Of a stretch of 64,000 bases of DNA, positions 39,380 to 45,140 are shown in pieces. The notes under the pieces were generated by a model that saw only the letters and a program-made list of their open reading frames with translations, was not told where the DNA came from and did not search any database. Position 1 is the first letter of the stretch, and each line of letters opens with the position of its first letter. Source of the DNA: Verrucomicrobiota bacterium (GTDB lineage: Bacteria; Verrucomicrobiota; Verrucomicrobiia; Verrucomicrobiales; DEV007); the NCBI GenBank assembly GCA_045046875.1, contig JASFYY010000118.1, forward strand, positions 9,841 through 73,840, written 5' to 3'. The translations under genes were made by a program, and so were the position numbers.

Positions 39380-39628
39380 GGGATTGGGAGGAAGGAGGGA
39401 AAAGAAGTTCAGAATACCAGACATGGGACAACCTTATTCTGATACCACTTTGAGCCGCCGTTCACAGCACATTAAGGCTTTGCTCCTTAACCTCAGCATG
39501 TGGCATGGATTGGCAATCCGTGTTTCTCGTTTCGGTATCGCTTTTAATTTTACCCTCAAATTTAACGCACCCCACTCCAACAACATTTTCCTAGAACGTG
39601 TCCGGTGTTCTGAAGTTGTGTAACTAAA

Positions 39629-40684
39629 TTATTCGGCCAACGTTGTCCAGTAATAGTAAGCTTCTGGACTGATACCTTTCAAGCGTTGCAGGATCGTAAA
39701 ATTTTCCGGTAGCTGGTGGTCTTTGATTTGATCAATGTGTGAAACATCGAAAACAGGGAGATTTTCGGAAATTGAATCACGTCCGATAATCGAAACGAGG
39801 GCTGCGGTTTTTGCAGCAGCGATTTTGGCCTGCGGCAGTCGGAAGCGGCAATCAATCAAGTGATTGGGCAGCTGCTTGATGCCGCGACGAAGGAGGCGGG
39901 TATGTTCCGTTTCAGTGAACCCTTTCAAATCCAGGGAGCAAAGTTGAAAGCAAGTTTCGATGGTGTCGGCAAGGTAATCCGCGTAGCTGGGGGCGGAATC
40001 GCGGTAGGAGCATTCGGCTGAGTGTGCCGTTCGGTTGGCAGCTGCAACAGATTCTAGATCAGTTACTACATCGTAGAGTTGTGCAATGTCGAAGAGTTGC
40101 TTGATCACTTGTTGACTGAAGCGCTCGGTCAAAGGCACGCCGATGGTGTTGGGAGCAAAGGCGGTGAGTTTGTCGCCGAGTAGAGCATTCACCGTGGGCG
40201 TAGTCACAAATACGGGTTTCGATGTTTCAATGAAGGGAGTCGTTATAGATTTCTCGACAAGATCGCTGAGGGTGTTTTTCTCGGTGACGATATCGAGCAG
40301 GATGGGAGTTTCACGCCCAGGACGGAGGGGCGAATCGTAGTAGAATTTGTAATGAAGCCGTTTGGGCAGTCGATGCTCTCCGCGCAACTGTTCTTCCCAA
40401 CGGGAAAAGGGTGTATCCGTTAATAGTGAATCGAGAATGGGAGCCAACAAGCCTGCATCGGTATCACAGACGATGTCGATATCGATGGACAGACGTTGCG
40501 GCTTGGGCAAATGCAGCAACAGCGAGGTGCCGCCTTTGAAAACAAAACCCAGACTGCTATGGGATAGCGCGCAGAGCAAGGTAAGGGCAAAAATAGCCCG
40601 TTCGAGGATCTCAGGATCGACCGCGTTCAAGCCTTCCCGTTGGGATTCGATCCATTCACGGCTATGACAATGCGGCTCGATCAT
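39629..40684 (-). CDS. AbiEii/AbiGii-family nucleotidyltransferase toxin (type IV TA)
   Basis: FVFKGGTSL...RLSIDIDI Pol-beta-like motif; LLDI; LLGDKLTAF; IKQLFDI. Confidence 0.9.
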   Translation of the reverse strand: MIEPHCHSREWIESQREGLNAVDPEILERAIFALTLLCALSHSSLGFVFKGGTSLLLHLPKPQRLSIDIDIVCDTDAGLLAPILDSLLTDTPFSRWEEQLRGEHRLPKRLHYKFYYDSPLRPGRETPILLDIVTEKNTLSDLVEKSITTPFIETSKPVFVTTPTVNALLGDKLTAFAPNTIGVPLTERFSQQVIKQLFDIAQLYDVVTDLESVAAANRTAHSAECSYRDSAPSYADYLADTIETCFQLCSLDLKGFTETEHTRLLRRGIKQLPNHLIDCRFRLPQAKIAAAKTAALVSIIGRDSISENLPVFDVSHIDQIKDHQLPENFTILQRLKGISPEAYYYWTTLAE

Positions 40685-40687
40685 GGA

Positions 40688-42781
40688 TCAGATGATGGAA
40701 GGGAGCAATTCTTTCACATCGATTTTGCGCCGCTCGGCGTAGCGTTTGAAAGCGGTGAGGTTGATTCGTTTAGCTGAAGTCAGGTTGTGCAACAAGCGGC
40801 GGTATTCTTCCAGCTCGTAAAGTCCGAGCTTTTGGATTTCGTAATAAAGATCGATCAGGGTGTGCTCTATAGGCGAGCGTTTTTCGACGTGATCGGAGGA
40901 CAGACGCGGGCGCAGGATGATCGTATCTTCTGTTTCCAAGGAAAAGGACTTTGCTGCTTCTCCGAGGGGATGAATGACGACCCTGTGTCCGGCATCGCGC
41001 AGGGAATCGGCGACCGGCTCGAAGGCGTCGCGATCCACCATCAGGAAGGTGGCGTGACGGGTTGGCAGATGATGGAAATAGGCAGCAAGTTCGCGGGTGC
41101 TCCAGAGGGTGTGGTCGAGCAGAGGGAAGTCTTGCTTGAGGCTTTTCTGCAGCGATTGCATCACAGCAATGTTCTGATCGGGAAGAAAAGCTTCGGGCAG
41201 ATCGGAATACCAGCCGCGACCAGCGTCATGAATCAGGCCCTCGCGCATCCAGTCCTGCAGGTAACGTTTGATGGTAGCGGATTCGTAATGCAGAGCCTCG
41301 GCTTCGATGGTCTTCTGAATGGTGGCTAGGTCGATGTAGTGACGGGAGAGGCCGAAGAGTTTGGGTAGCAGTTCCCCGGCGACGTAGTGCTTGCCGTCGA
41401 GGTAGGCGAGCGCGGTTTTTTCGTCCTGTTCGATGGCGATCTCGACAGCACGTTTGGCGCGGGCTAGGAGGGATTTGGAGTGGTGTGATTTGTTTCGGGA
41501 TTCAAAAACTAAGTCGCGAATTTTATTTTGAATATGTTCAGGAGCCAACCAAATCTTAAAATCAGCAATATCACTGGGATAGAGTTCAATTTGACCAGAA
41601 GAACCACTGTATCTTTGTTCCACTTGAAGCTGACCTGCAGGACTGTTCAGAAAAGTTGCCAAATAAGTAGGGTCGATGGAGTGCTCCTTAATTTTGATAA
41701 TAGTAACATGGTTGTCAGGCAAAGCTGGGTAAGGTTCTAAATAGGCAGCAGAGCGTCCTATGGTGCCTACACCAGTTCCATTAATAAGAACATTGCCTTT
41801 CTCAATAAGTAGAGAGTTGTCCCGAGGCTGAGCAAATCGATTTCCATCATCGATACGAACTGTCCCTTTGGCCACATGTTTCGAGTTCACTACAGGTAAA
41901 CCTTTCTCAGTGTAGTCGGGTTGTCTGCCCCTACTGATTTGAGACGATAAATTTCCAAGGATTTCTAACTCACCAGCTTGAGCAATTTTATTTTCAAGAG
42001 CTTCAAATTTTGGGTGGAAAAAATTAGCATCATACCGTTTCGCAGCGAATACATCACTGGCTGGTTTTTCATAACTCAATGGATTGGGCGGCTCCCAGTT
42101 ATCGAGCTTGAGCGCGGAGAGGAGGGTTTGTTCGGCTTTGTCGCGGGCTTGTTCAGAACACTCCAGCGCGATGCGTGCCGCTTGGACTTTTCCAACAATT
42201 TCCCGTTTTAGTTCAGTAGATAGTTGAGGGATCAATACTTGGTCAACGTCTTCCAATAAAAAGCCTGTTTGAACTGTTCCCCTACGAAATCTTTGTATTT
42301 GGGAAGCACCTAATTTAGACTCTAGGTAAATTGCCAAAAATTCAGCTTCTATAGAATGGGGTCGAAAAATGGCTAACTTACATGAACAAGTTGCTTTCCG
42401 GTCAGATCCTACCAAAGACAGAGCACCAACGGTTCCAACTATAGACAGCAAGACGTCCCCTTTTTCCAAGTGGGAGCGTTTCATGTGATTATCAGCAAAT
42501 GCTTCGGATGTTATTTCGATTGGATTAGATTGCTCGATAAAAAATGGTCCTGTTACATCCTGTCCGCGATAATAGGGAATCCCGCTCTCAATGAATGAAT
42601 CTGAAATTGAGAAATGGTTGCCGTCAGAAACAGCTACTAAATCAGCAATTGAGAAAGTTTTTCTAGAAGCTAGATTTTTTTCTATTAAAACATGGGATTT
42701 CTTGAAAAATTCTGCGTCGATGCGTTTCGTGCGTTCGAGATCGTAAAGTCGAATCTCGGTTGCTTCCAGCCCCTCCAACAA
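40688..42781 (-). CDS. HsdS-like specificity subunit (two TRDs) fused to C-terminal AbiEi/DUF6577-like antitoxin domain
   Basis: TRD1 (IDAEFF...GDVLLSIVGTVG...FLAIYLES) and TRD2 (RYDANFFHPK...GNVLINGTGVGTIGR...YLATFLNS), each followed by a helical spacer; then wHTH-like TIKRYLQDWMREGLIHDAGRGWYS and ...IEHTLIDLY...RYAERR. Confidence 0.82.
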   Translation of the reverse strand: MLEGLEATEIRLYDLERTKRIDAEFFKKSHVLIEKNLASRKTFSIADLVAVSDGNHFSISDSFIESGIPYYRGQDVTGPFFIEQSNPIEITSEAFADNHMKRSHLEKGDVLLSIVGTVGALSLVGSDRKATCSCKLAIFRPHSIEAEFLAIYLESKLGASQIQRFRRGTVQTGFLLEDVDQVLIPQLSTELKREIVGKVQAARIALECSEQARDKAEQTLLSALKLDNWEPPNPLSYEKPASDVFAAKRYDANFFHPKFEALENKIAQAGELEILGNLSSQISRGRQPDYTEKGLPVVNSKHVAKGTVRIDDGNRFAQPRDNSLLIEKGNVLINGTGVGTIGRSAAYLEPYPALPDNHVTIIKIKEHSIDPTYLATFLNSPAGQLQVEQRYSGSSGQIELYPSDIADFKIWLAPEHIQNKIRDLVFESRNKSHHSKSLLARAKRAVEIAIEQDEKTALAYLDGKHYVAGELLPKLFGLSRHYIDLATIQKTIEAEALHYESATIKRYLQDWMREGLIHDAGRGWYSDLPEAFLPDQNIAVMQSLQKSLKQDFPLLDHTLWSTRELAAYFHHLPTRHATFLMVDRDAFEPVADSLRDAGHRVVIHPLGEAAKSFSLETEDTIILRPRLSSDHVEKRSPIEHTLIDLYYEIQKLGLYELEEYRRLLHNLTSAKRINLTAFKRYAERRKIDVKELLPSII

Positions 42782-42810
42782 GTCCTCGTAACGAGCTTTG
42801 TCGAAGGGGC

Positions 42811-44916
42811 TTACCCTTTTCCCGGCGCGAACGACAGGCCCTCTCGTTTAGCGAACTCCCCAAAGGCCTCCGCAATTCCATCCTGCGTCTTGCCGTCGTG
42901 ATTGAACAAGTCGTGTTTCACGATCAGATGCCCATGCCCATCGAGCACAAACTCATCGAGACTGCTTGCGGTCGCTTCGTAGCGATTAGGCACCTCATCC
43001 CATTTGTCCGCCACCTGCTTGCGGTCACTTCCATTTCCTTCCTTGATCTCCAACAAATCCTTGCGTTTCAAATAAATCTTCTCCCCCGAGTTGTCTTTAC
43101 TCGACTCCTGCATCGTCGCAAAAAAGATCGGGTAATCGTCTTTTTTCGGACAGAGTTTCTCGTCCCACTTCTGCACCAACAGCACCGAAGTCTTAGTTCC
43201 CGTGTGAGGCTTGAACACATTGCCATGCAGTCCCACCACCGCCAGAATGCGACAGTGCTCCATGATGTATTCGCGCAGGTGTTTGTCAGAGGAATTATTA
43301 AACCGCCCCTGTGGCAGCACTACCGCCATGCGTCCACCGGGTTTCAAAAAATCCAGATTGCGTTCGATGAACAACAAGTCTCTACCGACTTTCGTCTGGT
43401 ATTTGCCATTGGGCTTTTTGCCCAGGTCATACTTGGCGAGAATACGTGACTCTTTTATGTCCCCGGCAAAAGGCGGGTTTGCCAGCAGCACATCAAAGTT
43501 GAAATGATGATCACTGTTTTTCTTCGCCCGCAGTTTTTTCAGCTTCTTCCAGCCTTGATTATAAGTATCGATCCACTCTTCATCCTTGGTTTTTTCATCC
43601 CAGCGCTCCCAATCCAGTGTATTGAGATGCAACACATTGGTCTGTCCATCCCCAGCGATCAAGTTAAGCGTGCGCGCCACCCGCACCGAACGTTCGTCAA
43701 AATCTATCGCGAAGACCTTGTCGTTCACGTAGTCGGTGCAACGCTGCGATTTTTCCTCAGCGGTGAACAAATGACTCTTCGGCAGTCCCTCGTCGGCGAG
43801 GATTTTCTCCCACACATGAAAGATCGAGTGAACCGGAAAACCACAACTGCCTGCCGCAGTATCGATCAGCGTCTCATCCTCCTTGGGATCCAGCATCTTT
43901 ACGCACATGTCGATGACATAACGCGGAGTGAAGTATTGCCCCTTTTCGCCCTTGCTCGATTTGTTGATCAGGTATTCGAAAGCCTCGTCCACTACATCGA
44001 GGTTGGAGTTGAAAAGCTTCACATCCTGCAGGGACGAAACACAAACTGAAAGATGGGAAGCGGTCAGGTCGATCTTGGAATCCGGACTGAAAACGCCTTC
44101 CCATTTTTTCTTAGCTAGATTAAAAAGTTCGCCGATCTTCTCCTTCAGCTCGGTTTCGGTATCACCGTAGTTGCGAAACTCCAGATGGCGCTTTTTGTTC
44201 CGCCCCGATGACATTTCATCAAAGAGCTTGGTGAAAATCAGTTTGAACAATTCCTCGAAAACATCCACCCCGGCATTGGCCAGCACCTCGTCCTCCATTT
44301 CGAGAATCAAATCCTTGAGCGATTTGCGCTCGTTGATGAGCTTGTCCTTTTTGACTAAGTCATCAATCGTCCAGCGCTCGGTGAGGATGTCCGAAAGTTT
44401 TTCCGTCGCTTTGGGGATACCAGGAATGTCCTCGAAAAAATTCGGATCCTTGCGGTGGTAATACGAGATCGACTCCCCATTAGTCCACACTCCGATTGGA
44501 GCACCCGTAGCATTGCAATAGGATTTGAGCTGCTCCTTGCCGTCTTTGAGTTTGGGTTTTTTGAGCTCGACGATCAGATAAACCGAACGCGTATCCTGTT
44601 TATCAAAAATGACAATGTCCGCACGCTTTTTCTCCCGCCCGAAGCTGACCGAATACTCCAGCTCCATACGGTCGAGCGGATAGTTGAGATCTTCATGCAA
44701 TACGCGCAGATAGAGCTGACGAACAGCTTCTTCAGGCGTGAGTTTAATGTCCTTTTCCCGCACCAAGCAATGGATATAAGGGGCATCCTTGCCGCGAACC
44801 GTTTTTTCAAACACCAATTTCTCGAAAGCCTCAATCTGTTCCTTAGTAAATTGGCTGAGACTATAGTTCGAGTCCTTAAGAATGGATGAGAGTTGGAAAG
44901 TGCTTATTTCAGTCAT
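42811..44916 (-). CDS. Fused endonuclease (HsdR_N-like PD-(D/E)xK) + gamma-class N6-adenine methyltransferase (Type IIB/IIG-like RM subunit)
   Basis: TPEEAVRQ, RADIVIF..IVELKKP, GQYFTPR, DTAAGSCGF (motif I), ANPPFAG (motif IV), LFIERNLDFLKPGGRMAVVLP, VFKPHTGTKT. ATG 44916 preferred over GTG 44958. Confidence 0.92.
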   Translation of the reverse strand: MTEISTFQLSSILKDSNYSLSQFTKEQIEAFEKLVFEKTVRGKDAPYIHCLVREKDIKLTPEEAVRQLYLRVLHEDLNYPLDRMELEYSVSFGREKKRADIVIFDKQDTRSVYLIVELKKPKLKDGKEQLKSYCNATGAPIGVWTNGESISYYHRKDPNFFEDIPGIPKATEKLSDILTERWTIDDLVKKDKLINERKSLKDLILEMEDEVLANAGVDVFEELFKLIFTKLFDEMSSGRNKKRHLEFRNYGDTETELKEKIGELFNLAKKKWEGVFSPDSKIDLTASHLSVCVSSLQDVKLFNSNLDVVDEAFEYLINKSSKGEKGQYFTPRYVIDMCVKMLDPKEDETLIDTAAGSCGFPVHSIFHVWEKILADEGLPKSHLFTAEEKSQRCTDYVNDKVFAIDFDERSVRVARTLNLIAGDGQTNVLHLNTLDWERWDEKTKDEEWIDTYNQGWKKLKKLRAKKNSDHHFNFDVLLANPPFAGDIKESRILAKYDLGKKPNGKYQTKVGRDLLFIERNLDFLKPGGRMAVVLPQGRFNNSSDKHLREYIMEHCRILAVVGLHGNVFKPHTGTKTSVLLVQKWDEKLCPKKDDYPIFFATMQESSKDNSGEKIYLKRKDLLEIKEGNGSDRKQVADKWDEVPNRYEATASSLDEFVLDGHGHLIVKHDLFNHDGKTQDGIAEAFGEFAKREGLSFAPGKG
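42817..42823 (-). promoter_or_regulatory. Candidate -1 programmed ribosomal frameshift site G_GGA_AAA
   Basis: X_XXY_YYZ heptamer correctly phased, one codon before the RM stop; the -1 frame is the S-gene frame. Confidence 0.6.
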
Positions 44917-44974
44917 CGTGATGCGAGTTAAAACCCTATTGAATAATAGGAACCTCACTAAAAATCAATACAAC

Positions 44975-45019
44975 AATCCCTCTTTGTCACTTTTTTAAAA
45001 AATGTGACAAAGAGGGATT
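44975..45019. promoter_or_regulatory. Perfect 16-bp inverted repeat (candidate operator) upstream of the defence operon
   Basis: AATCCCTCTTTGTCAC-(13 nt A/T)-GTGACAAAGAGGGATT, in a divergent intergenic region. Confidence 0.7.
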
Positions 45020-45140
45020 ACCCTCACTTCCCCCGCCTCTTTTTTTCCTCGCTCATTTGCCTTCGGGCTGTTGCCTTACAGTCGGCTGAGTCAAAAAATT
45101 CTCTGGAAGATTTCTTGCGAGTCTTTACATTGATAGCTCG

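Follow-up and report, generated by a model that had tools for sequence, protein, structure and literature searches.

The sequence analyzed here (the window) is a stretch of 64,000 nucleotides from a Verrucomicrobiota bacterium (GenBank assembly GCA_045046875.1, contig JASFYY010000118.1, positions 9,841 to 73,840). It contains a cassette made of a restriction-modification (RM) gene, a specificity (S) frame that runs on into an AbiEi-like antitoxin domain, and the gene of an AbiEii toxin. A preliminary description, made from the DNA letters, had recognized three open reading frames (ORFs) forming a minus-strand operon, and these were indeed found at 44916-42811, 42781-40688 and 40684-39629 when the locus was annotated with Pfam, PADLOC and NCBIfam models. 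The features of the cassette are the following, TRD standing for target recognition domain and wHTH for winged helix-turn-helix.

39410..45093, no strand assigned: RM + S-AbiEi + AbiEii cassette; empty site in the congener G502, joint in public runs X1 and X3
44916(ATG)..42811, minus strand: RM gene, 701 aa; HSDR_N_2 PD-(D/E)xK nuclease and N6_Mtase N6-adenine methyltransferase
42781..40688, minus strand: S frame with antitoxin, 697 aa; two Methylase_S stretches, then DUF6577
42781..41390, minus strand: specificity part (residues 1-464 of the ORF as called), with two TRDs and a pair of conserved helices
41389..41192, minus strand: wHTH part of the AbiEi domain; wHTH matches with Z 7-9 over domain residues 1-66
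41173..40688, minus strand: AbiEi C-terminal antitoxin domain (DUF6577); fold matches 6Y8Q and 1ZEL
40684..39629, minus strand: AbiEii/DUF1814 nucleotidyltransferase toxin, 351 aa; 3 nt past the S-AbiEi stop

The enzyme, the antitoxin domain and the toxin

In the RM protein the nuclease motif ADIV..ELK and the methylase motif NPPF are both intact, the best sequence match in the PDB is RM.BsaXI (E 3.4e-20), and the ratio of non-synonymous to synonymous substitution rates (dN/dS) is 0.05-0.13 in three close pairs. The specificity part is matched in fold by the S subunits of PacII and BsaXI. Nuclease and adenine methyltransferase (MTase) thus lie in a single subunit accompanied by a two-TRD specificity part, as in type IIB enzymes. 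The preliminary description had taken type I systems as its frame of comparison, while noting that HsdR and a standalone antitoxin were lacking. Neither an ORF for HsdR, the ATP-dependent translocase, nor a separate antitoxin gene is present in the cassette (39410-45093); type I membership was rejected for want of the former, and the enzyme is, as judged from its sequence, type IIB/IIG-like. Among relatives TRD1 and TRD2 are mosaic, with identities varying from ~12 to 74%, and TRD2 is swapped for another in a ~95% identical strain, whereas the S-antitoxin junction is fixed. Broken S frames occur in the relatives L040, L046, L102 and L110, through either decay or assembly error.

The two-TRD frame had been said to continue into an AbiEi/DUF6577-like domain, and it matches DUF6577 at residues 503-688 and the PADLOC AbiEi model PDLC02235 at 482-688. 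A PDB sequence search with the DUF6577 profile gave no AbiEi match. A model of the domain (predicted local distance difference test, pLDDT, 95; 127-row alignment) had as its top Foldseek matches the AbiEi of S. agalactiae (6Y8Q, E 9e-5), then Rv2827c (1ZEL). VIA-align laid domain residues 73-233 on the AbiEi C-terminal domain (CTD) of 6Y8Q with a modest Z of 8.8 (root-mean-square deviation 3.3, 123 residues aligned), 6Y8Q being the top match in this comparison as well. The end of the S frame, for which an AbiEi likeness over residues ~465-697 had been put forward, is on this model indeed AbiEi-like by fold. As in AbiE systems, an N-terminal wHTH precedes an AbiEi-fold CTD; unlike in these systems, the antitoxin is not a free-standing protein of a bicistronic operon but is in frame with S, and no start codon lies near the domain at this locus. 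In the three close pairs dN/dS is 0.03-0.08 for the wHTH, the most constrained part, and 0.12-0.19 for the CTD. The S-antitoxin junction has no linker, and its pattern YL(D/E)G(K/R)x(F/Y) is kept down to ~30% antitoxin identity.

The toxin gene begins 3 nt after the S-AbiEi stop, where the preliminary description had placed it. Its product matches PF08843 (E 3e-19) and PDLC02299 (E 1e-97) with intact nucleotidyltransferase (NTase) motifs, and G51, G52, R64, S66, D68, D70, K172, K195 and D199 are the same in all 36 aligned relatives. S66, part of the R-x-S-x-D-x-D motif, is a candidate phosphoacceptor: it aligns by motif with S78 of MenT3 and T65 of AbiEii, the positions reported to be phosphorylated in those toxins (for T65, bioRxiv 2026.01.19.700257). 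The toxin dN/dS is 0.12 in the one pair with both toxins intact. An AbiEii gene follows in all 27 fused loci with room for it and is intact in 25 of these, and antitoxin and toxin identities are correlated (Spearman 0.56, 44 loci). A prediction of the antitoxin-toxin complex scored 0.60, against 0.01 for the best control, with 96% contact agreement between runs and a partner pLDDT of at least 85. Of 157 solved pairs 116 reach the same mark, as do 2 of 215 mismatched ones; scores of up to 0.60 are more often wrong than right unless the pair is likely beforehand, and the score may reflect likeness to solved AbiE complexes. The predicted complex lends weak support to the pairing.

The RM/S junction and the region upstream of RM

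Three further elements concern the expression of the operon.

42817..42823, minus strand: G GGA AAA heptamer (slippery site), 9 nt upstream of the stop codon of RM
42768..42811, minus strand: candidate stimulatory RNA hairpin; minimum free energy -28.2, z -4.3, 18 pairs
45019..44975, minus strand: 22-bp inverted repeat with 1-nt spacer, core GTCAC-N13-GTGAC; candidate AbiEi wHTH operator

Programmed -1 ribosomal frameshifting in bacteria is recognized from an in-frame X XXY YYZ heptamer, an open -1 frame and a conserved downstream structure, and all three are found in the sequence of the RM/S junction. The S frame is the -1 frame relative to RM and is open from 42847, across the heptamer. The hairpin (14-18 bp) buries the annotated TTG start of S and its GAGG. 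In the covariation analysis 89.8% of cells were paired, with 15 two-sided changes (0 of 500 shuffles), against 35-61% for slid controls; one of the sequences had itself supplied the structure, and this stretch also encodes protein. Slippery site and hairpin were present in 20 of the 22 RM/S junctions of this RM family, antitoxin-fused or not, the other two junctions belonging to distant relatives. Genome-wide, both signals are found at one of 2440 long-ORF ends, the RM end itself. One relative has an S without any start codon (L042), and in another (L113) RM and S are naturally fused in frame, joined by the peptide predicted for the junction. The heptamer variants seen in the RM + S family are G GGA AAA, T TTT TTT and C CCT TTT.

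The preliminary description had S start at the TTG at 42781. This codon is probably not the real start, because the frame is open from 42847 and would be reached by -1 frameshifting; some initiation may take place there beside frameshifting. The antitoxin would then most probably be made as the tail of an RM-S-AbiEi chain (700 + 12 + 697 = 1409 aa) and not of a free S, a length matching the 1300-1550 aa of the type IIG-antitoxin fusions described below. The preliminary description had tied the antitoxin to S; the tether is most likely to the whole RM-S chain. From the junctions compared, the predicted -1 signal (42768-42823 in the window, and 19 related loci) is common to the HSDR_N_2-N6 MTase + S family in general. 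Such a family-wide frameshift would explain the second RM supply for one-chain RM-TRD-TRD enzymes. BsaXI has been described as (RM)2S, and an engineered M-S fusion plus free M is reported to give active enzyme (PMC3510504).

The inverted repeat lies 59-103 nt upstream of the RM start and recalls the operator arrangement described for AbiEi, namely 23-bp inverted repeats with 3-bp spacing (PMC3985639, PMC7319586). Its core is present in six of six close fused loci with upstream DNA, five exact and one, L133, carrying a single mismatch plus symmetric changes in its flanks; L132 was not counted, its upstream region being the same as that of L038. Conversely, the core is found in 0 of 13 RM relatives without antitoxin, among which only one, L125 (77% RM identity), is a close negative control. 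These 13 include the closest RM relative, whose genome (G859) gave no antitoxin match. A sigma-70 scan found no promoter at the inverted repeat, and Rfam gave just one sub-threshold miRNA hairpin there. The antitoxin wHTH probably also represses the RM promoter.

Relatives, genomic setting and spread

The 5.7-kb cassette is a present/absent unit between two chromosomal genes, with three ORFs only and no integrase or transposase. Its span was set at 39410-45093 because the flanks, 93-96% identical, lie 50 bases apart at the empty site of the congener G502; the same empty site (joint 39409->45094) was found in contigs of public runs X1 and X3. Contigs of X1, X3 and X4 (three of four public runs, two studies) bridge the S-antitoxin junction without a gap, which together with fused relatives elsewhere rules out an assembly artefact as the source of the fusion. 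The fusion on which the preliminary description was built is thus real, and with 32 further S fusions it is not unique to this assembly. The host genome has one copy of the cassette, and a search of 118 genomes from the host's own family, four congeners among them, gave no match to the antitoxin domain, so that the cassette is patchy.

A search with the antitoxin region, limited to proteins of 383-1220 aa, gave 33 matches including the query, all of them S fusions with 52-70% identity; the junction is free of indels in 31 of the 32 others. Where names were given, all were Verrucomicrobiota, and Pelagicoccus sp. SDUM812002 has the identical operon arrangement. A search at greater lengths added four long proteins among the matches listed, all S or IIG, and an Atlas search matched S-subunit clusters only (scores 0.81). 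The plasmid collection held one DUF6577, free-standing. With the antitoxin alone as query, samples of 400 genomes each from the phylum and the order yielded 22 distinct other genomes, 12 of them with the domain fused to an RM chain.

At the DNA level we scored 85 loci, drawn from the genome samples, from metagenomes scanned with the S-fusion alignment as seed and from a family search that used RM as query, a set enriched in fusions: 33 are RM fusions (9 S and 24 type IIG), 45 are free-standing, 4 have other long N-terminal frames and 3 are cut. The 24 IIG chains are of Eco57I type with the same C-terminal antitoxin domain, and an MmeI chain with this domain occurs among 150 cluster representatives. 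In every RM fusion the antitoxin ends the chain that bears nuclease, methylase and TRD. The commonest fused form in the samples is an operon of a PLD-SNF2 helicase, type IIG-AbiEi and AbiEii (L024, L028, L029, L059, L085, L099, L105, L141-L143). L066 holds tandem DUF6577-AbiEii pairs, one IIG-fused with a full toxin, the other free-standing with a truncated toxin.

In a 196-row tree of the antitoxin, a clade of 53 rows is all free-standing and one of 143 rows mixes fused and free forms. The antitoxin of P0035 is by inspection a recombinant, with a wHTH like that of L025/L027 and a CTD like that of L023, which suggests that the CTD (with the toxin) swaps at the conserved GxGWYS motif. Among 11 short close relatives, four carry the N-terminus of RM at their start, with the antitoxin following in the same frame (p<=0.004, three breakpoints), in keeping with an antitoxin that ends the RM-S chain. 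As read from the protein N-termini, these RM-less derivatives (P0070, P0181, P0184, P0186) are consistent with deletion of RM + S with the RM start kept.

Two features lie apart from the system itself. One is at the end of the cassette:

39410..39612, no strand assigned: 203-bp element like a miniature inverted-repeat transposable element (MITE); imperfect terminal inverted repeats, AAGTT on both sides

This element is probably a separate insertion. One more full copy exists in the host genome and many in G452, and it holds a short palindrome found in tandem elsewhere in the host genome. The other, outside the window, is a further and distant pair of MTase and S in the host genome (G000, contig C144).

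Possible function and relation to known systems

From the anatomy, conservation, purifying selection and co-occurrence seen at these loci, we infer a series of biochemical steps. A single promoter would drive RM, S-AbiEi and AbiEii. Most ribosomes would end after RM, and some would slip by -1 to make the ~1409-aa RM-S-AbiEi chain, which with plain RM could form the equivalent of an (RM)2S type IIB enzyme. By homology with S. agalactiae AbiE, the AbiEi CTD would bind AbiEii and induce auto-phosphorylation at S66, and the wHTH would bind the inverted repeat upstream of RM and repress the operon. Because the antitoxin would be made solely as the terminal domain of the complete chain, ending the supply of this chain would free the tRNA-modifying toxin and arrest growth. 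A nonsense or frameshift mutation in either RM or S, a TRD swap that breaks the frame, loss of the cassette, proteolysis of the enzyme or shut-off of host translation could all have this effect. The outcome would be addiction to RM types whose cutting and methylating activities share one complex, and a second, abortive layer once the enzyme disappears.

AbiE is reported to stabilize plasmids and to autoregulate via its 23-bp repeats (PMC3985639, PMC7319586); since it stabilizes them although plasmid loss stops both genes, mutations that put a stop into RM or S, or shift their frame, should mimic plasmid loss. Type I RM systems are described as showing no post-segregational killing (PMC3874152), which by analogy could extend to IIB/IIG systems. 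The addictive character that the preliminary description gave to the RM locus would follow if AbiE behaves as published. We propose, then, that the toxin monitors the supply of full-length enzyme and that the enzyme represses its own operon, and to this we give about an even chance. A broader proposal is more tentative: a family of guarded enzymes, IIB-like through programmed frameshifting, IIG or MmeI, in which the antitoxin ends the restriction chain and anti-restriction proteins, proteolysis or an altered frameshift efficiency would derepress the operon and unleash the toxin. Of the preliminary interpretation as a whole, the AbiEi-like domain, the toxin partner, the recurrence and the addiction are retained; the tether is more likely to the RM-S chain than to a free S, and the frameshift signal and the candidate operator had been missed.

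A number of observations weigh against these proposals. Free-standing antitoxins make up 45 of the 85 loci, which makes fusion optional, and rare fusions to non-RM proteins exist among the 150 cluster representatives (P0068, P0042 and others). The toxin is broken in two fused loci, L054 (where the IIG is also broken) and L134, by decay or assembly error. It is intact in 25 of 27 fused loci and 16 of 29 free ones (Fisher 0.002), a comparison biased by the definition of "fused" through an open frame, and the gap is non-significant in tree-aware pairs (3.1 vs 0.5, p 0.375). In close fused loci the operator core may be shared by descent; its genome-wide frequency is at chance level and it occurs in 0 of 2 more distant S fusions. 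It is lacking in 39 of 40 free-antitoxin upstream regions, the match in the remaining one (L036) being possibly due to chance, and with no enriched dyad found, a family-wide operator motif was rejected. Fused and free forms are interleaved in the 143-row clade, with 37 changes. The approximately unbiased (AU) test first rejected a single S-fusion clade (p 0.0007); rerun without the recombinant P0035 and the fragment P0141, it gave no rejection (p 0.076; wHTH 0.34; CTD 0.40), and the idea of many independent S fusions was withdrawn. For the two IQ-TREE runs the 196 rows had been thinned to 44 and 41, near-duplicates being removed by hand. The S fusion may thus have arisen once, and the S, IIG and MmeI junctions may have as few as about three independent origins. 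The deletion derivatives were found through an antitoxin search and are no proof that out-of-frame loss kills. Finally, S. agalactiae AbiE is reported not to have protected E. coli from 32 phages (bioRxiv 2026.01.19.700257).

One added step, put forward in the preliminary description and compatible with the monitoring of enzyme supply, would be that an anti-restriction protein (an Ocr/ArdA-like mimic or Stp-like peptide) binds the enzyme and leaves the tethered antitoxin blocked, sequestered or destabilized; the antitoxin would leave its operator, fresh unphosphorylated toxin would accumulate and the infection would be aborted. A physical tether is the sole thing that fusion offers beyond adjacency, and the linker-free, conserved S junction, the retention of the toxin and the precedents described for PrrC, Ronin and EcoR22I fit this idea. 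On the other hand, the IIG fusions have a variable Pro/Ala-rich linker at the antitoxin junction, which argues against a precise allosteric path, and a toxin neutralized by stable phosphorylation is described as being released only if a phosphatase acts or toxin is made anew (bioRxiv 2026.01.19.700257). As the phosphorylation of the AbiE toxin is stable, instant release upon inhibitor binding would be less direct than for PrrC or Ronin. We regard the added step as plausible, though less likely than the monitoring of enzyme supply.

The fusion could also be a functionless by-product, tolerated after AbiE cassettes landed behind RM genes and a stop codon was lost, and spread by a mobile RM cassette. 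An RM gene is the nearest upstream ORF in 8 of 36 unfused loci (36 of 38 scanned, L036 and L066 being left out), fission is frequent, singleton fusions to unrelated proteins occur, the origins are possibly few, and the fused partner is simply the last gene of the RM operon. We nevertheless find this unlikely: RM fusions account for 33 of the 37 long-frame loci while most neighbors of free antitoxins are non-RM (kin are not independent here, and a Fisher test on fusion partners was for this reason not relied upon), the fusions have outlasted the shuffling of TRDs and a divergence down to ~30% identity, the operator precedes RM only where the antitoxin is present, and neither HsdR nor classical HsdS, which both occur as neighbors (L034, L055), was seen in a fusion. 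Least probable in our view is that AbiEi was recruited as a built-in RM controller, an analogue of C proteins sensing the amount of free enzyme, with the toxin as a passenger. The strong constraint on the wHTH, the candidate operator before RM and the two broken toxins would agree with it, yet the toxin gene follows in every fused locus with room, is intact in 25 of these 27 and has a dN/dS of 0.12, no common operator was found before IIG or distant S fusions, and a free repressor would do without fusion.

The non-RM fusions deserve a remark of their own. In P0068 and P0042, DUF6577 stands behind a P-loop-like/TPR protein (1313 aa) and behind a 370-aa helical domain, respectively, and these are possible sensor-antitoxin fusions outside RM.

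In the openly licensed PMC/bioRxiv literature we found no paper with "DUF6577", no description of an AbiEi or antitoxin fusion to RM, HsdS or IIG, and, in a search on RM and frameshifting, no description of such an arrangement. The single parts are known, and their covalent, frameshift-dependent union appears undescribed. Gene-based defence finders would tend to miss the cassette, with its antitoxin hidden in an RM protein. What activates the AbiE toxin during infection is presented as an open question in bioRxiv 2026.01.19.700257, and a restriction enzyme with a naturally tethered antitoxin allows this question to be tested directly. The arrangement would also give DUF6577 a function, link an RM-gene frameshift to toxin control and offer non-addictive RM types a route to become addictive, kept in frame during TRD recombination.

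The cassette can be compared with four known systems. Its RM and S have homologues in MAD2 and MAD5 of MADS, but membership was rejected, the scores (318/720 and 115/400) being far under the curated cut-offs and the other mad genes absent from the cassette. With AbiE/MenAT (type IV, reclassified as type VII) it shares an NTase toxin in which every motif and a candidate Ser/Thr phosphoacceptor are present, an upstream antitoxin with wHTH and AbiEi-fold CTD, and a ~22-bp inverted repeat before the operon; it differs in that the antitoxin is the C-terminal domain of a restriction chain, the candidate operator lies before an RM gene, and DUF6577 matches solved AbiEi by fold only, not by sequence. 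A nuclease-gamma-type adenine MTase, a two-TRD S and the lack of a translocase recall type IIB enzymes (BcgI, BsaXI) and the single-chain RM-TRD-TRD enzymes AloI and CjeI. Unlike in type IIB, however, RM has 701 aa (916 aa in BsaXI), S is apparently joined to it by -1 frameshifting, and an antitoxin is carried. A last parallel can be drawn with the RM guardians PrrC-EcoprrI, Ronin, EcoR22I and PARIS, in which a growth-arresting effector is genetically tied to an RM complex. Whereas their effector is held by, or directly senses, the RM complex or its inhibitor, the present cassette would place a separate enzyme-like antitoxin covalently in the RM chain. If the broader proposal of a guarded family is true, this family would combine a defined trigger for AbiE with a ribosomal frameshift that sets the antitoxin dose.

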